A stretch of 64,000 nt of DNA from an uncultured Subdoligranulum sp. (GTDB taxonomy: Bacteria > Bacillota > Clostridia > Christensenellales > CAG-314), in assembly GCA_902496185.1 (NCBI GenBank), contig CABUZX010000001.1:64509-128508 (forward strand), in the 5' to 3' direction. Below are positions 1,178 to 25,640 of this stretch, one piece after another. The position numbers and the translations under genes are program-made. Within the stretch, counting starts at the first letter, position 1, and each line of letters opens with the position of its first letter. The notes below the pieces were generated by a model. The model worked only from the letters and a program-made list of their open reading frames with translations. It was not told where the DNA came from and ran no database searches.

Positions 1178-1262
1178 TGGTGGGAAGAGGTGGATTCGAA
1201 CCACCGAAGTCGGTGACGGCAGATTTACAGTCTGCTCCCTTTAGCCACTCGGGAATCTTCCC
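1178..1262 (-). tRNA. tRNA-Tyr (anticodon GTA), long variable arm, encoded CCA
   Basis: The reverse complement reads GGGAAGATTCCCGAGTGGCTAAAGGGAGCAGACTGTAAATCTGCCGTCACCGACTTCGGTGGTTCGAATCCACCTCTTCCCACCA. The acceptor stem is GGGAAGA/TCTTCCC, the anticodon loop CTGTAAA, and the T arm GGTGG-TTCGAAT-CCACC. Confidence 0.9.
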
Positions 1263-1271
1263 ATATATTCA

Positions 1272-1347
1272 TGGAGCTGGTGAACGGAATCGAACCATCA
1301 ACCTATTGATTACAAATCAATTGCTCTGCCAGTTGAGCTACACCAGC
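1272..1347 (-). tRNA. tRNA-Thr (anticodon TGT), encoded CCA
   Basis: The reverse complement reads GCTGGTGTAGCTCAACTGGCAGAGCAATTGATTTGTAATCAATAGGTTGATGGTTCGATTCCGTTCACCAGCTCCA. It folds as a cloverleaf with anticodon stem ATTGA/TCAAT and loop TTTGTAA. Confidence 0.9.
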
Positions 1348-1364
1348 AAGTATTTTATAAAAAA

Positions 1365-1440
1365 TGGTGCCTCGGGGCGGAATTGAACCACCGACACGGG
1401 GATTTTCAGTCCCCTGCTCTACCAACTGAGCTACCGAGGC
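1365..1440 (-). tRNA. tRNA-Phe (anticodon GAA), encoded CCA
   Basis: The reverse complement reads GCCTCGGTAGCTCAGTTGGTAGAGCAGGGGACTGAAAATCCCCGTGTCGGTGGTTCAATTCCGCCCCGAGGCACCA. The anticodon loop is CTGAAAA. Confidence 0.9.
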
Positions 1441-1444
1441 ATTT

Positions 1445-1521
1445 TGGCGACCTGGAAGGGACTCGAACCCTCGACCTCTAGCGTGACAGGCTAGCGTTCT
1501 AACCAACTGAACTACCAGGCC
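1445..1521 (-). tRNA. tRNA-Asp (anticodon GTC), encoded CCA
   Basis: The reverse complement reads GGCCTGGTAGTTCAGTTGGTTAGAACGCTAGCCTGTCACGCTAGAGGTCGAGGGTTCGAGTCCCTTCCAGGTCGCCA. The anticodon stem is CTAGC/GCTAG and the loop CTGTCAC. Confidence 0.9.
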
Positions 1522-1552
1522 AAAAACTGTTTATATATGCGTTAGGTTGCGT

Positions 1553-1629
1553 TGGTGGGCCTTCAGGGACTCGAACCCCGGACCAATCGGTTATGAGCCG
1601 ACCGCTCTGACCAACTGAGCTAAAGGCCC
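1553..1629 (-). tRNA. tRNA with CAT anticodon (elongator Met or lysidine-modified Ile2; not initiator), encoded CCA
   Basis: The reverse complement reads GGGCCTTTAGCTCAGTTGGTCAGAGCGGTCGGCTCATAACCGATTGGTCCGGGGTTCGAGTCCCTGAAGGCCCACCA. G1-C72 is paired and the anticodon stem has no triple G-C run, so it is not tRNA-fMet. I cannot separate Met from Ile2 by eye. Confidence 0.85.
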
Positions 1630-1634
1630 TCAAA

Positions 1635-1711
1635 TGGTCGGGGTGAAGAGACTCGAACTCCCGACCCCATGGTCCCAAACCACGTGCGCTACCAAACTGC
1701 GCTACACCCCG
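1635..1711 (-). tRNA. tRNA-Pro (anticodon TGG), encoded CCA
   Basis: The reverse complement reads CGGGGTGTAGCGCAGTTTGGTAGCGCACGTGGTTTGGGACCATGGGGTCGGGAGTTCGAGTCTCTTCACCCCGACCA. The acceptor stem is CGGGGTG/CACCCCG and the anticodon loop TTTGGGA. Confidence 0.9.
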
Positions 1712-18948: not shown

Positions 18949-20775
18949 TTAGATATTGTTTTTTATTAAGTTAATTAAATTTTCCGAAGTAATCCCAAAT
19001 TGTTTTAATTGCTCTAAAACAGTAGCATGTTTTACGAATTTGTTATTTACGCCAAGATGAATAATTTTTTTAGGATAAAAATTTTTATTTGAAAAATACG
19101 TATCAATCATTGAACCAAATCCAGAAGTTAACATTCCTTCTTCAATCGTAATAATCAATTTAGCATTTTTTAAAGTTTGTAGCAAGTATTCGTCAAGCGG
19201 TTTTACAAAATAAGCATCTACTACACATAGGGAAATTTTTTCATTTTTCAATTCTTCCATTGCATTGATAGACGCTAATAATGCATTATTACCTACTGCT
19301 AATATAACAAAATCAGCATATTTGTCTCCAAAAACAGCCCAATGATTTGCATCAAAATCAGCCGAAAATTCTTTTGGCAAAAGCATTTCGCTTTTAGGAT
19401 ATCTTATTGCAATGGGTGAATACTGCGTTGCGCTCCAAATTAATATTTGTTTTAACTGCTTTGATGAAGATGGAGCCAAAATTTTGATGTTAGGAATAGA
19501 AGACAAGAAACATATATCAAACAACCCCTGATGGGTTTGACCATCTTCTCCTACAAATCCAGCTCTATCGATACAAAAGGTTACTGGTAAATTTTGTAAA
19601 CATACGTCGTGTATTATTTGGTCGTATGCTCGTTGCAAAAAAGTAGAATATATGGCAACGTAAGGTTTCATTCCTTGTACTGCAAGCCCCGCAGAAAAGG
19701 TAACTGCATGTTCTTCGGCTATACCTACGTCAAAAAATTTATCAGGAAATTTTGTCCTAAAATCCGCAGTGCCCGTTCCGTCAGCCATAGCTGCCGTAAT
19801 TACCGTTATTTTTGGGTTGTCAACCGCCAAATCACACAAAGTAGAGCCAACTATTTTTGACATAGTAATTGATGATAATGCATTTTTTGATGATATGCCA
19901 TGAAATTTGTTAGGTTCATTTTCTGCCGGGAGATATCCTTTCCCTTTTTTTGTAATGACGTGTAAAACAGTAGGTTTATCAATATTATTTTTGATTTCTC
20001 TTAAATAAAATATAAGCTCCTTTACGTCATGACCGTTAACGGGACCAATATAGCGTATATTAAAATTCTCAAAATAAATATTATGCAATTTCTTCAAACG
20101 GATATTTCTAACCATTTTTGTCCCCATTTTTAACAAGGGTTTGCCAATCAATGGTAATTTACTTAAAAACTTTTTAGTATTTTTCTTTAAACGCAAGTAT
20201 TTTTTACTTACTCTAACTTTAGAAAGATTTTTTGTAGCGCTACCCACGTTTTTATCTATTGCCATATTGTTATCATTTAAGACAATGAACATTTTTGTGT
20301 CGCCAATAGAATTTAAACCTTCGTACGATAGTCCACCTGTCAATGAACCGTCACCTACGACAGCAACGACGTCGAAAGAATGATTTTGTATATCGCGCGC
20401 TTTAGCAATACCTAACCCTGCAGATATTGCAGTACTGGCGTGCCCTACCCCAAAAACATCATATATAGACTCTTCTATTGTGGGAAATCCTGATATTCCA
20501 TCCTTTTTTCGTAAAGTAGCAAACTCTTTTTCTCTACCCGTTAAAAGTTTATGAACGTAAGCTTGGTGTCCTACGTCCCATACTATTTTGTCAACATCAT
20601 CAAAAACGTAGTGAAGTGCTACAGTTAACTCCACTACGCCCAAATTGCTTGCCAAATGCCCGCCGTTGTCCATTACTGTCGTCAAAAGTTTTTCACGAAT
20701 TTCACTACAAAGTTCGGGCAATTGATTAATATTTATTTTTTTTAAATCGGTAGAACTTAAAATATTTTCTAACAT
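18949..20775 (-). CDS. dxs: 1-deoxy-D-xylulose-5-phosphate synthase
   Basis: It has thiamine-diphosphate motifs (GHASTAISAGLG, GDGSLTGG) over a full-length Dxs layout. The ATG overlaps the upstream stop as TAATG. Confidence 0.93.
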   Translation of the reverse strand: MLENILSSTDLKKININQLPELCSEIREKLLTTVMDNGGHLASNLGVVELTVALHYVFDDVDKIVWDVGHQAYVHKLLTGREKEFATLRKKDGISGFPTIEESIYDVFGVGHASTAISAGLGIAKARDIQNHSFDVVAVVGDGSLTGGLSYEGLNSIGDTKMFIVLNDNNMAIDKNVGSATKNLSKVRVSKKYLRLKKNTKKFLSKLPLIGKPLLKMGTKMVRNIRLKKLHNIYFENFNIRYIGPVNGHDVKELIFYLREIKNNIDKPTVLHVITKKGKGYLPAENEPNKFHGISSKNALSSITMSKIVGSTLCDLAVDNPKITVITAAMADGTGTADFRTKFPDKFFDVGIAEEHAVTFSAGLAVQGMKPYVAIYSTFLQRAYDQIIHDVCLQNLPVTFCIDRAGFVGEDGQTHQGLFDICFLSSIPNIKILAPSSSKQLKQILIWSATQYSPIAIRYPKSEMLLPKEFSADFDANHWAVFGDKYADFVILAVGNNALLASINAMEELKNEKISLCVVDAYFVKPLDEYLLQTLKNAKLIITIEEGMLTSGFGSMIDTYFSNKNFYPKKIIHLGVNNKFVKHATVLEQLKQFGITSENLINLIKNNI

Positions 20776-21470
20776 TATTTTTTAGAAAAAACTGATAATA
20801 CTTTTGCAAGTGAAAGTATTATTTTGGTAGCGTTTTTAATTGCTAATTTCTTACCTAACGCCTTGCCTGTAATCATTACTGCAGCAATTAGAGTGCTACA
20901 CAATACGCTTATTATCAAATATTGAGTTTGGTGTTGAATTGCCATTACCGCCACTATTGCCGCACCACAGGCGCCGGAAATAATACCGCAAATATCCCCT
21001 ATCACGTCACAACAAATACTGCTTACAACGTTTGCATTTTTTGCTAATTTAACAGCAAGTTTTGCACCTTTAAGTTTTCGTGCTGACATAGCCAAAAACG
21101 GTTCTGGATCGCAAGAAGTTGATGCTACGCCAATCATATCAGAGATTATTGATACTACAACGATCAGTATAATTAATATATACGCAATAAAAACGTTTTT
21201 TGCATCAATTTCACCAATAACCAACTGTGAAAGAATACCAAATAAAAAAGATAAAATAATTGTCATCAAACATACTGTTAAAATCCAAGGTATTTTAATT
21301 TTTTTTTGATGTTTCTTTTGGTTTAATTGTCGTGGTTTTTTTAATAACGCACCTTCTTGTTTAATGTTTTTTGTTTGTTTTTTTATTTCGGAAAAATCCC
21401 CCGTACCACTCGGAGGATTACCGTCACTTGTGTCTGTCAATTCTTGTGTTTCTTTTTTTTGCGTATTCAT
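20775..21470 (-). CDS. oapA: Four-TM membrane protein in the position of OLE-associated protein A (OapA)
   Basis: A Lys/Gln-rich hydrophilic N-terminus of about 60 aa precedes four hydrophobic helices (e.g. VVSSICCDVIGDICGIISGACGAAIVAV). It lies immediately downstream of the OLE-like RNA and is translationally coupled to dxs. The family call is by context and architecture. Confidence 0.7.
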   Translation of the reverse strand: MNTQKKETQELTDTSDGNPPSGTGDFSEIKKQTKNIKQEGALLKKPRQLNQKKHQKKIKIPWILTVCLMTIILSFLFGILSQLVIGEIDAKNVFIAYILIILIVVVSIISDMIGVASTSCDPEPFLAMSARKLKGAKLAVKLAKNANVVSSICCDVIGDICGIISGACGAAIVAVMAIQHQTQYLIISVLCSTLIAAVMITGKALGKKLAIKNATKIILSLAKVLSVFSKK

Positions 21471-21494
21471 ATTTCAAACTATTAATAAACAAAT

Positions 21495-22090
21495 TTTATT
21501 TGGTGGTAACAAAATAAGTAAACCTTACGGCATAAGGTTCAGTAGGATTTCCCCCTCGAATACTCTCCGTCGCCAGAAAAAAGCAGTTTCCTTTTAAATC
21601 CAAGGATGCGTCGTCACCTAACGCACAACTGAATCGCCACTAAGTCCGTACTATAATCCCTATTTTGTCTCTAAAAAACAGTCTAGAAGTTTTCCTTAAC
21701 AAATTGTAAATCATCTATCTTCTTTTGCAATATCAATTTCATTAAGCAATCTCAATATCAAATCGGCCAACTCAATATTTTGTGTTCTTAAATCCCAAGA
21801 CATCACTCAAAGCAGGCTACTCTGTACACAGCTTTTTATTCACCGCATAGCAGGTTTAATCTCAATCAGTAATTTCGCTTAAAACTACTCTTACCAAATT
21901 AAGTCTCCACGAACAACGGGATAGGAAATATGCCATTAAATCTTACCCATAATTCTTAACTCCCAGCACCACCCCCTGTTTGGGCAACAGAGGGAAGCAC
22001 AAGAAACTTCATCGATGTGCCCTTTGACGATAATTTATCCCCGCCTTCAATGATTTAGTATTTGACTAGAATACTGCACCACCAATTCAT
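21495..22090 (-). ncRNA. ole: OLE (ornate, large, extremophilic) RNA candidate
   Basis: The gap between ispA (stop 22140) and oapA (start 21470) is 669 nt and free of credible ORFs. It is locally G+C-rich (33 of 60 in 21961-22020). It contains many hairpins (22057-22075, 21972-21994, 21606-21626, 21521-21539). An 8-bp long-range helix joins TTGGTGGT (22085-22078) and ACCACCAA (21507-21500). The genomic context is the one published for OLE. The ends are approximate. Confidence 0.75.
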
Positions 22091-22095
22091 ATTTT

Positions 22096-22124
22096 ATATT
22101 AACATATTTTTTTTATTTTTGCAA
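22096..22124 (-). promoter_or_regulatory. Sigma-A type promoter immediately upstream of the OLE-like RNA
   Basis: On the - strand: TTGCAA (22124-22119), 17 nt, TGT-TAATAT (22101-22096). The predicted start near 22089 is just 5' of the closing helix. Confidence 0.5.
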
Positions 22125-22139
22125 GTATTAATTATCCAA

Positions 22140-22967
22140 TTAGTCAAAAATCCTTTTTAAAACTTCATCTAGCCTTGTTTTGAGAAAATTAAAGGTATTT
22201 TTTGAAAAGTTGTCATTTAATTTATTTAGCAAAATATTTGCTTCTTTTGCGATTATAAATATTACTTCTTTTGCCTTTTCATAACTAAAAAAAGTTAAAA
22301 TTGAAGTTTTTTGCGTATCTTCATCTTTATCGAATAAATCGTCAACAAATTGGTAAATCAAACCTAATTTAACACAAAATTCAGCCAATAATTTTTTTGT
22401 ATCATTTGTTGCCCCTGCCAATATAGCTTGAGAAACGACGGAAGCGCAAATTAATTGCGAGGTTTTTAATTTCGATAATTTTTTATATTCATCAAAAGTC
22501 AAATTTTCGTTTAATACGTCTATTGATTGGCCGTAAATCATACCTCCAAATCCTGCGCACTTAAAAATATACTTTGACGCATCAAAATAATTTTGTTCCG
22601 CTTTTCCACCTACAATTATTTCTATAGCAGAAGTTAATAGTCCGTCACCAGCCAAAACCGCTTGCGTATCTCCAAATTTTTTTTGACAAGATGGTAAACC
22701 GCGGCGCTCATCAGCATTATCCATACAAGGTAAATCATCATGAATCAGTGAATAATTGTGTATCAATTCCACAGCTACAGCCAAGCGATGCGCATTTTTA
22801 TTGGTTGCGTTTTTAAAAGCTTTAGCCGTATCTAAAGAAAGCAAAAACCTAAAACGCTTTCCTCCAGCAGATATTGCATATAGTCCTGCATTTAACGCAA
22901 TACAGTCGGTAGGATAATTTTTGCCGGCCATTTGACTATACATTTTTTCAAAATTTAATTCAATCAT
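22140..22967 (-). CDS. ispA: Polyprenyl (farnesyl/geranyl) diphosphate synthase
   Basis: The first Asp-rich motif is LIHDDLPCMDNADERRG and the second Asp-rich region is YQFVDDLFD. It follows xseB, as in Bacillus. Confidence 0.88.
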   Translation of the reverse strand: MIELNFEKMYSQMAGKNYPTDCIALNAGLYAISAGGKRFRFLLSLDTAKAFKNATNKNAHRLAVAVELIHNYSLIHDDLPCMDNADERRGLPSCQKKFGDTQAVLAGDGLLTSAIEIIVGGKAEQNYFDASKYIFKCAGFGGMIYGQSIDVLNENLTFDEYKKLSKLKTSQLICASVVSQAILAGATNDTKKLLAEFCVKLGLIYQFVDDLFDKDEDTQKTSILTFFSYEKAKEVIFIIAKEANILLNKLNDNFSKNTFNFLKTRLDEVLKRIFD

Positions 22968-23172
22968 TTGTCTCTATCCTACTTTGTAATTCAACCCATT
23001 GCGATTTCAAATCTTGCAATCGTTGAGAATATTTTTCCAAAATTTCTGAACATTGGGTTGAAATTTTTAATCCCTCATCAAATAACTCAAAACTTTGTTC
23101 AAGCGTAGTGTTTTTATCTTCCAACTTATTGGCTATTTCGTTTAATTTTGTAAGCAATTCTTCAAAATCCAT
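22960..23172 (-). CDS. xseB: Exodeoxyribonuclease VII small subunit
   Basis: It is a small helical protein (FEELLTKLNEIANKLED...LEQSFELFDEGLKL-like). The ATG at 23172 has the SD GAGGT. The ORF-track start at 23184 is 4 codons upstream. Confidence 0.88.
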   Translation of the reverse strand: MDFEELLTKLNEIANKLEDKNTTLEQSFELFDEGLKISTQCSEILEKYSQRLQDLKSQWVELQSRIETND

Positions 23173-24334
23173 GTTTAACCTCATCTACCGTCGTTTTAAT
23201 ACTTCCATCTGATAAATATATCGTAAGTTTATCTCCCATATTAACATTAGCAACTTCAGAAATTCTTTGTTCGTCTTTAAAAATTAGACCTTTGCCGTTT
23301 TTTAAGGCATTTTGCGGTGAAGTTAGCTCTATCTTTTTTCGCAAAAAATAAAATTCCGAAATCTTTGCTTCAAATTTATTTTGCAACAAAAAGGAAGTTC
23401 GTTCCATCAATAAACTTAAATATGCGCTTATTTTTTCTACTTTGTTTAGCATAGTACTATTCAATTTATTAATAATATTATTATATATACCATTTTTATT
23501 ATAAAACTTTTCAAGAAAAGCATTATATAATCTTTTTAATAACTCTGACAAATCATTATCGACGTTAAAATTGGTAACAATTTCTGCCGCAATTGAAGGC
23601 GTGCCGGCACGTAAATCAGCGCAAAAATCGCAAATAGAAAAATCAGTTTCGTGCCCTACCGCTGAAATTGTTGGTTTTGAACAATCTTTTAGCGCTAAAG
23701 CAATTTCCTCGCTATCAAAAGCAGATAAATCTTCTTTACTACCTCCTCCGCGAGCAATAATTATTACATCAACGTCTTGCAAGTCTAAATATCTTATTCC
23801 GTTAGCAATTTGAGTACTTGCGTTTTCACCCTGCACACGTACGTCGTATAAAAATAATTTAGCATATTTATTTCGGCGTGTTACAACGTTAAAAATATCG
23901 TGTAGCACTGCCCCTTTTGCCGAAGTAATAACACCAATATTAAAAATATATTTTGGTAAAGCTTTTTTTCTATCCTCATCAAAAAAACCGAGTGTTTTTA
24001 ACTTTTGTTTTAATTCAGTCAATTTTTTAAATTGGGCACCTTCTTCTTCTGTAAACGTTATTTTATTTACAAAAAAACTAACTTTACCAGATTTAAGATA
24101 AGTGGCACTTCCCTCAACTATTACTTCACAACCGTTTTTTAATCCCGAAATTAACTTGTCTAAATATGCAAAACAATCCATTTGACAAAAAGCATCTTTT
24201 AATGAAAAAAAGATGCTTTCATCTGTAAAACGTAAATTTGAAACTTCACCACAAATACTGACCTTTGCCAACATTGGCTCATTATCAATAAGAGCTTTTA
24301 AAAAATTGTTGTATTGCGAAACGTTAATTATCAT
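23162..24334 (-). CDS. xseA: Exodeoxyribonuclease VII large subunit
   Basis: It has an N-terminal OB fold (VSICGEVSN) and a catalytic region (IIIARGGGSKEDL, GHETD). Confidence 0.9.
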   Translation of the reverse strand: MIINVSQYNNFLKALIDNEPMLAKVSICGEVSNLRFTDESIFFSLKDAFCQMDCFAYLDKLISGLKNGCEVIVEGSATYLKSGKVSFFVNKITFTEEEGAQFKKLTELKQKLKTLGFFDEDRKKALPKYIFNIGVITSAKGAVLHDIFNVVTRRNKYAKLFLYDVRVQGENASTQIANGIRYLDLQDVDVIIIARGGGSKEDLSAFDSEEIALALKDCSKPTISAVGHETDFSICDFCADLRAGTPSIAAEIVTNFNVDNDLSELLKRLYNAFLEKFYNKNGIYNNIINKLNSTMLNKVEKISAYLSLLMERTSFLLQNKFEAKISEFYFLRKKIELTSPQNALKNGKGLIFKDEQRISEVANVNMGDKLTIYLSDGSIKTTVDEVKHGF

Positions 24335-25195
24335 TTATTTTATTTTGTATTGTCTTTTTGCTGATTTAACTATATTTTCCAACATTATACCGGTAGTCAT
24401 TGGACCACAGCCACCCGGCACTGGCGAAATTGCCGATACAAAATTTGAGAGCTCGTCAAATTTTGCATCTCCAACAACTTTGCCGTCAACAAAATTAGTG
24501 CCAATATCCAAAACGATAGATTCCTCTCTTACCATACTTTTATCGAGAAGCCCCGCTTTGCCGGCGCAAAGAATAATTATATCTGCATTTTTGCATGCTG
24601 ATCGCAAATTTTTAGTGTGAGTATGACAAACCGTAACGGTTGCATTGGCATTTAACAACATCATCATTAAAGGTTTACCTACTACAGTACTTCTACCAAC
24701 GATAGTAACGTTTTTCCCATCAAGTTCAATATTATATTTTTTTAATAATCGCATTGCGCCATAAGGAGTGCAAGGATAGAAAGTATCGTTTTGATTTTTA
24801 TTAGTGTACAAATCTGCAATACATTTAGGGGTTTGTCCATCAACGTCTTTTTCCGGCGCAATAGCAAGATTTACTTTTGACGCATCAATATGCTTTGGAA
24901 AAGGTGCAAGCAACATAATACCGTTTACTTCAGGGTTAGTATTTAATTCTTGAATTTTTGATACTACTTGCTCCGTTGTGGATTCTTCAGGCAAAACCTC
25001 ATAAGAAGCAAATATGCCTGCTTTTGCGCAAGCGCGTTTATTAGCTAATGCATATTGCAATATTGCATCATTGTCCCCCACGGACAACATAGCAAAACCA
25101 ACCGCATAACCGTTTGAAGCTAATTTACTAACTTGAGCAGTTTGTTCTTCCAAAATCTTTTTGTACTCTTCTCTTCCGTCAAATATTTTTGTCAT
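24335..25195 (-). CDS. folD: Bifunctional methylenetetrahydrofolate dehydrogenase/methenyl-THF cyclohydrolase
   Basis: It has VVGRSTVVGKPL and PVPGGCGPMT motifs. The ATG at 25195 is preceded by GGAGAAAT. The ORF-track start at 25318 runs into nusB and is an extension. Confidence 0.92.
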   Translation of the reverse strand: MTKIFDGREEYKKILEEQTAQVSKLASNGYAVGFAMLSVGDNDAILQYALANKRACAKAGIFASYEVLPEESTTEQVVSKIQELNTNPEVNGIMLLAPFPKHIDASKVNLAIAPEKDVDGQTPKCIADLYTNKNQNDTFYPCTPYGAMRLLKKYNIELDGKNVTIVGRSTVVGKPLMMMLLNANATVTVCHTHTKNLRSACKNADIIILCAGKAGLLDKSMVREESIVLDIGTNFVDGKVVGDAKFDELSNFVSAISPVPGGCGPMTTGIMLENIVKSAKRQYKIK

Positions 25196-25226
25196 ATTGA
25201 TTATTTCTCCAAAGTAAATTATCGAA

Positions 25227-25640
25227 TTATATTTTTTTTGCGTATTCCGCCAAAATTCCGTTGATAAATCCAGAGCTATTTTCCGTTGAATATAATTTGG
25301 CAAGATTAACAGCTTCATTAATTACAACAGGTAGCGGTGTAATCTTTGCTTCAAGTTCAAAAAACGCCATCATCAATATTGCAAAATCAACTTTAAATAG
25401 TCGTTCTTCCCTAAATCCTTTTGCTAATTCTGCAACTTTTTGACGATATTTATCAAAGTTGTCAATTACGTTGTTGTAAACGTCCTTTATATACTCCTTA
25501 TCAGAATCATCAATTTCAAAAACAGTATCATCTGCATCAGTCATTTGAATAAATTGTTCCAACTCCAAATCGTCTTTAGTGTTAGTAAAAAAATACTCGT
25601 ATATCAAACTAAATGCAACCTTTCTCGCATCTTTACGCAT
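25227..25640 (-). CDS. nusB: Transcription antitermination factor NusB
   Basis: It starts MRKDARKVAFSLIYE and ends with FINGIL, a NusB layout. The ATG at 25640 follows GGAGG. Confidence 0.9.
   Translation of the reverse strand: MRKDARKVAFSLIYEYFFTNTKDDLELEQFIQMTDADDTVFEIDDSDKEYIKDVYNNVIDNFDKYRQKVAELAKGFREERLFKVDFAILMMAFFELEAKITPLPVVINEAVNLAKLYSTENSSGFINGILAEYAKKI

Follow-up and report, generated by a model that had tools for sequence, protein, structure and literature searches.

According to Block et al. (2011), cited in PMC12265935, OapA, the OLE-associated protein A, binds the RNA OLE in a cooperative manner and brings it to the membrane. In B. halodurans the RNA is transcribed from a promoter of its own and is both highly abundant and stable (PMC3413148). 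The published signature of OapA is a DxxxD motif, which sets the protein apart from CNNM domains, and OapB and OapC are reported missing from the TANB77 and RF39 clades (PMC11332333). An ASD/SD mimic in the P6 stem of OLE is bound by bS21 (PMC12054373). OapA alone among proteins is always found with the OLE RNA. The locus described here lies on the minus strand of a 64,000-nt stretch of DNA (the whole stretch analysed, hereafter the window, in whose positions all coordinates are given). The finding is ordinary as far as protein annotation goes; its one unexpected feature, and a new one, is a conserved RNA hairpin inside the tail codons of oapA. The explanation as a whole, namely OapA identity, a start at ATG 21470, a disordered tail and a hairpin conserved as RNA, we regard as highly probable.

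The OLE RNA occupies 21487..22098 (RF01071, 407 bits, full length, model positions 1–616). A promoter-like site for it, with TTGCAA, a 17-nt spacing and the extended −10 TGnTAATAT, is found at 22096..22124; its position and sequence are conserved in 12 relatives, and the consensus promoter scan did not list it. At the corresponding position in B. halodurans, a promoter has been demonstrated experimentally (PMC3413148). A promoter-like TTTACT-18-TAAAAT inside the OLE 3' end (21522..21493) carries no weight, because 28 such matches were found and 31 are expected by chance; the 10-nt repeat AAATATGAAT, which flanks OLE on its 5' side and recurs where oapA starts, is likewise put down to chance since relatives do not conserve it. 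OLE is directly upstream of an oapA homologue in all 20 of the related loci examined, and the order folD-xseA-xseB-ispA-OLE-oapA-dxs-nadK-argR is conserved in relatives. A metagenome scan gave 20 loci when the alignment served as query, and nothing with the single protein.

The oapA ORF (20775..21470, 231 aa, ATG start) has 1125 homologues and a predicted CorB/CorC-like fold. Its assignment to OapA, as an ordinary member of the family, is supported by OLE directly upstream, four predicted helices, the DxxxD motif and the CorB/CNNM-like fold of the model. The motif, D155-V-I-G-D159 in TM2 (20994..21008), has D155, G158 and D159 invariant across the 102-sequence alignment. A second conserved element is a loop with a positive cluster of R131, K132, K134, K137, K141 and K144 (21039..21080), modelled by AlphaFold2 with short helices at 123–130 and 136–144: K132, G135 and K144 are invariant and R131 is at least 90% conserved in a 40-sequence alignment, and K132 is nearly invariant also among the 102 aligned sequences. 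From the positive-inside pattern and by analogy with CorB, R131, K132 and K144 would lie on the cytoplasmic face. OapA is described as lacking the conserved proline of CNNM domains. As read from the homologue alignments, P124, in the loop, is the sole nearly invariant proline, with none in helices 146–212, and TM3 ends in GKALGK.

In Pfam, CNNM (PF01595) matches residues 99–230 at E = 4.6e-4 and 20.3 bits, under the cut-off of 28.4 bits. Pfam and NCBIfam gave no other domain (the NCBIfam search had no meaningful match), and the protein stops at residue 231, just past the juxtamembrane helix. A sequence profile of 102 homologues found no relative in the PDB; the best four Foldseek matches to the AlphaFold2 model are MtCorB and TpCorC (7m1t, 7m1u, 7cff). 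The model has four long hydrophobic helices (62–85, 90–119, 146–178 and 182–212) and an amphipathic helix (214–228), with a core pLDDT of 80–95. OapA would thus be built as a CNNM/CorB-like three-helix core with a juxtamembrane helix and, in front, an extra helix, TM0 (62–85). The earlier note had called the gene OapA from its place directly 3' of OLE and its four hydrophobic helices, and both hold: OLE ends 16 nt before the ATG by the Rfam model, the four helices are those listed, and the motif, the basic cluster, the weak CNNM match and the fold agree with the call. The lack of similarity to the family that would have spoken against it is contradicted by the 1125 homologues. The note's TAATG overlap with dxs is likewise present (20773..20777, read as 20777..20773), the final A of the TAA stop being the first base of the dxs ATG; it recurs in relatives, where the gene coordinates abut.

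In front of TM0 stands a hydrophilic N-terminal tail, codons 1–61 (21288..21470), disordered by its pLDDT of 45–56 and lack of secondary structure; 13 of its 61 residues are Lys and 7 are Gln, and its frame is open in 14 lineages. It had been described as hydrophilic and strongly basic; hydrophilic it is, but not uniformly basic, the net charge of +7 being divided between −4 in residues 1–28 and +11 in residues 29–61. The comparison of N-terminal lengths proposed at that time gives a family median of 32 aa, 56–80 aa in this clade and 61 aa here, in the upper quartile. In the window's clade, tail dN/dS is 0.6–1.3 against 0.04–0.09 in the core, and the middle of the tail there shows no sign of selection on the protein sequence (dN/dS about 1). 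On these sequence and model data the 61-aa tail is a lineage-specific disordered extension of nearly neutral sequence.

One part of it is of wider standing. A K/R-rich segment ahead of the tryptophan is present in essentially all homologues, with a median net charge of +4 over the last 12 residues. The last 12–30 residues or so of the tail form the Lys-rich positive-inside segment common to every OapA before the invariant Trp; this segment would orient TM0 and bring positive charge to the presumed OLE-binding face, and the rest of the tail is a lineage-specific expansion, its amino-acid sequence drifting almost neutrally. By the positive-inside rule and by analogy with CorB, the tail is predicted to be cytoplasmic, so contact between tail and RNA is topologically allowed.

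Whether the tail is in fact an RNA-binding arm, its Lys-rich half touching OLE electrostatically and perhaps compensating for OapB/OapC, we rather doubt, although this would be compatible with our preferred explanation. By prediction residues 29–61, with their net charge of +11, and the R131/K132/K144 cluster are on one side of the membrane, and the Lys-rich segment before the Trp is universal in the family; a short basic segment beside a membrane helix is, however, what the positive-inside rule alone would lead one to expect. The reported absence of OapB and OapC in TANB77 and RF39 would fit such compensation, the closest named genome being Subdoligranulum sp. CAG:314, which we take to be TANB77 in GTDB; yet RF39-type “Bacilli” loci, said to lack the two proteins as well, have tails of only about 28–35 aa. 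Furthermore, the extra length in this clade is acidic/polar rather than basic and evolves neutrally, and the near-neutral evolution (dN/dS about 1) argues against a sequence-specific contact. What the locus shows is a family-wide N-terminal segment that is a short Lys-rich anchor before an extra conserved membrane helix, with long OapA tails as lineage-specific disordered add-ons.

More unexpected is the RNA encoding the tail. Tail codons 16–28 (21389..21423) contain a hairpin, recognised by folding, by its rarity on the strand and by frozen synonymous sites: in codons 18–26, AAUCCUCCG (21419..21411) pairs with CGGGGGAUU (21403..21395) around a 7-nt loop, giving a 9-bp CCUCC/GGGGG stem with five G-C pairs and −11.8 kcal/mol, followed by AUUUUUCC. 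A run of five U follows the stem and reaches 21392, and an optional outer stem, CGG/CCG, can be added. The predicted pairing probability is about 1, and only 10 hairpins of comparable strength, this one included, exist on the minus strand of the 64 kb. It is present in seven lineages (that of the window, WIN, and L081, L082, L088, L084, L109 and L110), replaced in L086 and L111 by another stem, CCCCUAA/UUAGGGG, at the same place, and lost in the L085/L112 lineage.

Our best guess is that the hairpin acts as a weak intrinsic terminator or attenuator, or as a 3'-end stabiliser, which would let the strongly promoted OLE RNA build up far above the oapA-dxs message. Counted for this are the conserved extended −10 before OLE, the abundance and stability of OLE in B. 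halodurans, where it has a separate promoter, and the sister clade, where a hairpin with U6 stands within the OLE-oapA spacer. The consensus terminator scan of the window did not call the oapA hairpin, the stem of which (9 bp, about −12 kcal/mol) is short against the 12–15 bp of the evident intergenic terminators in the window, and three outer base pairs are able to enclose part of the U run. Two further points run against a terminator: L085/L112 have no hairpin, and termination within it would yield stop-less oapA fragments. A terminator downstream of OLE throughout the family is unsupported, a lenient scan there giving a density of 2.97 per kb, no higher than the control value of 3.28 per kb. 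Somewhat more broadly, we tentatively entertain a dual use of the segment: in this clade of gut Clostridia the opening ~80 nt of oapA may carry a selected cis-RNA element (a CCUCC/GGRGG hairpin with a U tract) that either terminates or attenuates the OLE transcript or recruits bS21/30S, the peptide being largely a passenger. Such an element would set the OLE:OapA ratio or couple OLE to the translation of OapA.

That the hairpin is no terminator at all and serves as a protein- or ribosome-binding element, either as an ASD/SD-type duplex resembling the P6 site of OLE that bS21 binds or as a partner for the single-stranded OLE junction GGGGGAAAUCCU, seems unlikely to us. The stem does pair AUCCUCC with GGAGGAU or GGGGGAU, that is, a sequence like the 16S tail with an SD-like one, which is the kind of mimic that bS21 binds in P6 (PMC12054373); the OLE junction GGGGAAAUCCU, unpaired in the Rfam consensus, holds the same two words in reversed order, and oapA itself has no SD. 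This is a resemblance only, however: the variant stem CCCCUAA/UUAGGGG of L086/L111 is not SD-like, no conserved start codon follows the SD-like arm, and the OLE junction is invariant, so that covariation with the hairpin is uninformative. Should the hairpin define the OLE 3' end or bind bS21, it would offer a handle on the large excess of OLE over operon mRNA and be relevant to the connection that has been reported between OLE and the ribosome.

Selection on the RNA is deduced from frozen synonymous sites rather than from covariation; strict base-pair covariation cannot be demonstrated, as a single U.G to U-A change is all the variation in the main stem, and the other stem type pairs in a shifted register. 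In the seven lineages all five of the hairpin codons that are invariant in amino acid are invariant as codons also, against 4/84 in the core (0/33 at four-fold sites), and, given the codon usage of the window, the codons that make up the hairpin would be chosen jointly with a probability of about 5e-4. This indicates selection at the nucleotide level, with the RNA conserved rather than the peptide: codons 18–26 would be kept for the 9-bp CCUCC/GGGGG hairpin and the U run behind it. A mere by-product of a conserved peptide motif, N-P-P-S-x-T-G-D-F, free of any RNA function, is a much less probable origin. Pro19 is invariant, Pro-Pro is retained even in lineages lacking the hairpin (EPPS, QPPS), and Pro (CCN) and Gly (GGN) codons naturally pair; but a peptide motif would not freeze synonymous positions on the rarer codons CCG, ACG and GGG. 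Nor would it predict that Gly24 may become Glu where pairing is preserved (GGG to GAG, which turns the U.G pair into U-A), that L086/L111 form their hairpin from a different peptide, TPKNKLGDS, or that the 3-nt insertion of L109 sits in the loop and leaves the stem unharmed. In one clade, then, RNA just past OLE is itself under selection.

TM0 (residues 62–85, 21216..21287), an extra N-terminal membrane helix in the AlphaFold2 model, starts with W62, which is invariant in the 102 sequences, and includes Met69 and F77, the latter at least 90% conserved. As the Pfam CNNM match begins only at residue 99, past TM0, and the VIG-E after the helix could by eye suit the −3/−1 rule, one may ask whether TM0 serves as a signal peptide that is cleaved off, which has been implied for the OapA of C. 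botulinum; the tail would then be removed and be absent from the mature OLE particle. We think this quite improbable. A Sec-type cleavable signal peptide has a short basic n-region, an h-region of 7–15 residues and a conserved small-x-small cleavage site; on inspection TM0 has 61 residues ahead of its hydrophobic stretch and a helix of 24 residues, both far outside the usual range, and the residues past it are not conserved as small-x-small. Trp62, Thr70, Ser74 and Phe77 are invariant or nearly so, unusual for a signal peptide, and the helix is modelled with a pLDDT of about 80. Models that drop the OapA N-terminus as a “signal sequence” may be dropping a conserved helix.

Finally, the start of translation. 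ATG 21470 stands 31 nt past the ACCACC 3' strand of the RNA closing helix (21507..21502) and 16 nt past the end of the Rfam model. The 31-nt spacer from the ACCACC strand to the ATG (21471..21501) is A/U-rich and without SD: the scan found no pairing (0 kcal/mol) in the 18–20 nt before ATG 21470, likewise before the TTG of codon 11, and none was seen by eye before ATG 21266 (Met69). The earlier note had estimated the distance at about 30 nt and had recognised no SD at either ATG, and here it was right. No close relative has an SD at its oapA start. A missing SD is not exceptional in this genome (15–25% of window genes are alike in this): among the 55 ORFs of at least 150 aa in the window, 14 lack one at the first ATG and 8 at any candidate start, the latter including the neighbours folD, xseA and dxs.

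An in-frame stop two codons ahead of ATG 21470 means that no earlier start is possible. Downstream of the ATG, the tail frame (56–80 codons) has no in-frame stop in 14 diverged lineages, the other two frames having 1–14 stops each; its probability of being open by shuffling is 0.012 in the window and 0.002–0.07 per lineage. The N-terminal peptide MNxxKKExxE aligns from Met1 across relatives, and in the sister clade tail dN/dS is 0.11. Translation therefore most likely starts at ATG 21470, which settles what the earlier note had left undecided. Initiation would proceed without SD pairing, by an SD-independent mechanism, in A/U-rich sequence that is predicted to be of average accessibility: the start site has a mean unpaired probability of 0.51, or 0.48 with the entire OLE included, and the median over 43 genes is 0.49. 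On these values we reject both masking and unusual exposure of the start codon by RNA structure, and for the dependence on the OLE fold that had been raised we found no evidence in this predicted accessibility. The TTG of codon 11 is excluded as a start by TTA in relatives. Also rejected was an internal start that would use the SD-like GGGGGA arm: the in-frame AUA 10 nt downstream occurs only in the window and L084, and no other start codon there is conserved. Nor does conservation begin at Met69, which is excluded as well: most orthologues have Ile or Leu at this position, and Trp62, which precedes it, does not vary among the 102 sequences. That the tail is untranslated, with a start at TTG 21269 or ATG 21266 behind a 5' leader of 200 nt, is scarcely credible, since its supports (ATG 21470 without SD, a tail dN/dS of about 1 in the window's clade and some short public gene calls in the sister clade, starting one codon before Pro-Trp, P0022) are outweighed by the stop-free frame, the sister-clade dN/dS, the unconserved Met69, which lacks an SD too, and the absence of any start codon between codons 11 and 68 in the window sequence.

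Compared with known systems, the locus touches four. With the CNNM/DUF21 Mg2+ transporters MpfA, CorB and CorC (PDB 7M1T, 7M1U, 7CFF) the protein shares a core, about residues 90–230, which superposes over some 140 columns with a probability of 0.95–1.0. It differs from them in scoring 20.3 bits against the CNNM gathering score of 28.4, in having neither the CBS pair nor CorC_HlyC, in its added TM0 and tail, in its DxxxD and in the lack of a PDB relative by sequence profile. With intrinsic (Rho-independent) terminators or attenuators between a highly expressed RNA gene and an mRNA, the oapA hairpin shares a G+C-rich stem, a 7-nt loop and AUUUUU, as well as a position behind a stable RNA whose promoter is conserved and looks strong; unlike them it lies inside an ORF, with a short stem and only 5 U, is uncalled by the consensus scan and has no family-wide enrichment. 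With the ASD/SD-mimic stem of OLE P6, the bS21 site, it shares a stem in which CCUCC-type and GGAGG-type strands pair, and it too is carried by the OLE transcript, but it is found about 90 nt past the OLE 3' end, in oapA codons, with the strand order reversed and in one clade, the bS21 likeness being one of sequence only.

Closest is OapA of Halalkalibacterium halodurans and other Bacillota, with which the window protein shares a gene directly 3' of ole, a small four-helix membrane protein, DxxxD and the basic cluster, together with the family's weak CNNM similarity (sub-threshold, as published), CorB-like predicted fold and neighbourhood of ispA, dxs, xseA/B, nadK, argR and recN. At 231 aa and about 25.5 kDa it exceeds the published OapA (21 kDa), the difference being the 61-aa disordered tail, and it has no SD where many distant oapA genes carry GGAG at −9 to −12. 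What sets this gene apart from known OapA is the RNA hairpin, under selection, in its 5' coding region.

The oapA reading frame (20775..21470, (-)) begins with an ATG and encodes 231 aa; at its end, the TAA stop codon and the start codon of dxs (608 aa) overlap as TAATG. Upstream lies the OLE RNA, the large RNA whose membrane partner is OapA (RF01071; 21487..22098, (-)), found full length by Rfam at 407 bits over model positions 1–616. The oapA ATG is 16 nt past the end of the OLE model and 31 nt past its ACCACC 3′ strand, so both this distance and the dxs overlap are as described in the earlier note. The order folD-xseA-xseB-ispA-(OLE gap)-oapA-dxs-nadK-argR is common to seven close relatives, and OLE directly precedes the homologue in all 20 of the 20 loci scanned. 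Just upstream of OLE is a promoter-like site at 22096..22124 (-), composed of TTGCAA, a 17-nt spacer and an extended −10 element (TGnTAATAT); as TTGCAA-17-TGnTAnnAT, it is kept at the same position in the window and 12 relatives, while the flanks differ. With an 8/12 match, it escaped a consensus promoter scan. Elsewhere in the window, six tRNA genes are clustered at 1181..1711 (-).

Whether translation starts at ATG 21470 had been left open; the comparative evidence answers yes. No earlier start exists, since an in-frame TGA lies two codons upstream. The frame of the tail (codons 1–61) is stop-free in 14 diverged lineages (56–80 codons, about 50% A), with 1–14 stops in each of the other two frames; by shuffling, the probability of an open frame is 0.012 for the window and 0.002–0.07 for the other lineages. 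The tail peptides align from Met1 (MNxxKKExxE), and the sister-clade tail has a dN/dS of 0.11 (locus L087 versus L001). Neither later candidate is conserved: TTG codon 11 is TTA in relatives, and Met69 (ATG 21266) is Ile/Leu in most orthologues, while Trp62, seven residues upstream, is invariant, so that conservation is not limited to Met69 onward. Together, these observations place the start at 21470. Public oapA gene calls differ at the 5′ end (protein records P0003/P0006, L082:3001-3024, among the entries concerned): some reach back into the 3′ strand of OLE (MLPPYYKT...), and one sister-clade call starts at a GTG just before Pro-Trp, with AAGGG upstream (P0022 among the entries concerned).

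The Shine–Dalgarno (SD) sequence reported missing is indeed absent: no pairing to the 16S tail was found in the 18–20 nt upstream of ATG 21470, nor at TTG codon 11, and none was seen by eye before ATG 21266. Such absence is not rare in the window: of 55 ORFs with 150 aa or more, 14 lack an SD at the first ATG and eight lack one at every candidate start. Four of these eight are folD, xseA, oapA and dxs, all within the ole neighbourhood (18949..25318, (-)). An SD is missing from all 21 oapA loci in the window's clade and the sister clade, whereas many distant oapA genes carry GGAG at −9 to −12 (SD pairing of −6 kcal/mol or lower at 15 of 47 oapA loci in total); the missing SD is thus a trait of the clade, not of the family. 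Most of the SD-less neighbours touch or overlap the gene ahead of them and so could be translationally coupled to it; with OLE as its upstream neighbour, oapA does not have that option. By prediction the start region is of average accessibility: its mean unpaired probability is 0.51, or 0.48 when the whole OLE is folded along with it, and the median over 43 genes is 0.49. This gives no sign of the OLE fold masking or exposing the start.

The tail had been described as strongly basic and Lys/Gln-rich. As a whole it contains 13 Lys and 7 Gln, but its charge is bipartite, residues 29–61 being net +11 and residues 1–28 net −4. Practically every homologue has a hydrophilic, Lys/Arg-rich segment ahead of the invariant Trp; across 102 sequences its median length is 32 (interquartile range 25–59.5, maximum 88), and its last 12 residues have a median net charge of +4. 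Comparison of N-terminal lengths, as earlier proposed, makes the long tail a clade feature: 56–80 aa in the window's clade versus about 28–35 aa in 'Bacilli' (RF39-like) MAGs. In the window's clade dN/dS is 0.6–1.3 for the tail versus 0.04–0.09 for the core, and the added, clade-specific length is acidic/polar, with neutral evolution. At one CAG:314-like locus (L101, ERZ780168 contig), an unrelated N-terminal sequence, MKKIVLFYGSDRAF..., is fused in frame just before KKKKGKKVPW, possibly through rearrangement or chimeric assembly.

What merits follow-up is a hairpin within the tail codons. Codons 18–26 (AAT CCT CCG AGT GGT ACG GGG GAT T) form a stem of 9 bp in which AAUCCUCCG (21419..21411, (-)) pairs with CGGGGGAUU (21403..21395) around a 7-nt loop, with a U run to 21392; the predicted pairing probability of the arms is about 1. 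Only 10 hairpins of such strength, this one included, occur on the strand in 64 kb, most of the others being intergenic terminators. (Also among the 10 strongest perfect hairpins of this strand is one of 14 bp with a 10-nt loop at 20604..20641 (-), within the dxs 5′ coding region, about 135 nt past the start.) The same type recurs in related loci L081, L082, L088, L084, L109 and L110: in L084 and L110 GGG becomes GAG (Gly to Glu), turning a U.G pair into U-A, and the 3-nt insertion in L109 affects the loop only. In L086 and L111 the peptide is different (TPKNKLGDS), yet a CCCCUAA/UUAGGGG stem followed by AUUCUUU occupies the same place. L085 and L112 have lost the hairpin; both have another, 7-bp hairpin about 20 nt upstream (GCAGGUC-AAAGY-GAUCUGC; L085:3040-3060, oapA codons 12–18), with no U run. 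Among the seven main-type lineages all five amino-acid-invariant hairpin codons (CCT, CCG, AGT, GAT, TTT) are also codon-invariant, compared with 4 of 84 in the core (0 of 33 four-fold sites); the joint probability of the hairpin codon choice is about 5e-4 under window codon usage, and pS is 0.27 in the tail versus 0.58 in the core (window versus L081). This is good evidence that the hairpin RNA is under selection; it does not amount to classical covariation, since in the second stem type the pairing register is shifted.

What is selected may be an element following OLE that acts as a weak terminator, an attenuator or a stabiliser of the 3′ end, which would explain a hairpin with a U run at this position. 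In B. halodurans OLE has its own strong promoter and is seen as one band, of a very stable and abundant RNA (PMC3413148); nothing has been published on its 3′-end formation there. The conserved promoter-like site before OLE offers a suitable context, as does the weak hairpin with U6 that the sister clade has instead in the OLE–oapA spacer. The latter, AUUCUAAACC-GAAA-GGCUUAGAAU, is conserved in L087, L001 and L090-L102 (Subdoligranulum sp. CAG:314-like), lies about 45 nt past the OLE 3′ strand and stops about 14 nt short of the oapA ATG. Against this reading of the tail hairpin, a consensus scan made no call at it, and it is weaker than the real terminators of the window; part of its U run can be enclosed by outer base pairs, and a lenient scan found no family-wide enrichment. 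Alternatively, the CCUCC/GGGGG stem may be a duplex of anti-SD/SD type, similar to the mimic in OLE P6 bound by bS21 (PMC12054373), though this is a likeness only; both stem words recur in reversed order in a conserved unpaired junction of the OLE 3′ domain (GGGGAAAUCCU / GGGGGAAAUCCU, 21530..21542, (-)), so that alternative pairing of this junction with the hairpin arms is possible on paper.

As a protein, the gene product has a lineage-specific disordered tail (residues 1–60, AlphaFold2 pLDDT 45–56) ahead of a conserved extra helix. Its basic regions are the tail, loop 120–145 and the C-terminus; the short loops 86–89 and 179–181 are not basic. This distribution fits an N-in, C-in topology, which by the positive-inside rule and analogy with CorB would have the tail face the same side of the membrane as the conserved basic cluster, and the basic half of the tail could thus contact RNA. 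A 2025 paper treated the N-terminus of C. botulinum OapA as a signal sequence; here, the 61-aa preceding segment, the 24-residue length of the extra helix (62–85) and the invariance or near-invariance of W62, T70, S74 and F77 argue for a retained fourth helix.

The attribution to OapA in the earlier note was correct, and the gene is a regular, mostly ordinary member: OLE upstream, the DxxxD residues, the helices and the CNNM-type similarity all fit. Homologues of 167–256 aa numbered 1125 in a protein search, confirming the expected similarity to orthologues. W62, D111, D155, G158, D159, K203 and K207 are invariant in alignments of both 40 and 102 homologues; K132, G135 and K144 are invariant among the 40, and K132 and G135 still nearly so (at least 90%) among the 102. 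AlphaFold2, run on the 102-sequence alignment (mean pLDDT 78), predicts helices at 62–85, 90–119, 123–130, 136–144, 146–178, 182–212 and 214–228, and the best four PDB matches of the model, spanning about 140 columns, are the CNNM proteins MtCorB (7m1t, 7m1u) and TpCorC (7cff); a sequence profile search against the PDB found no relative. The Pfam CNNM/DUF21 match (residues 99–230) is sub-threshold, at 20.3 bits against a 28.4-bit cut-off, and an NCBIfam search returned nothing, which is the behaviour published for OapA, with its weak CNNM homology, DxxxD motif, lack of the CNNM proline, four TM helices and conserved basic cluster (PMC11332333). In contrast to a full MpfA/CorB transporter, whose above-threshold score, CBS and CorC domains the oapA product lacks, it has every feature of OapA that could be checked here.
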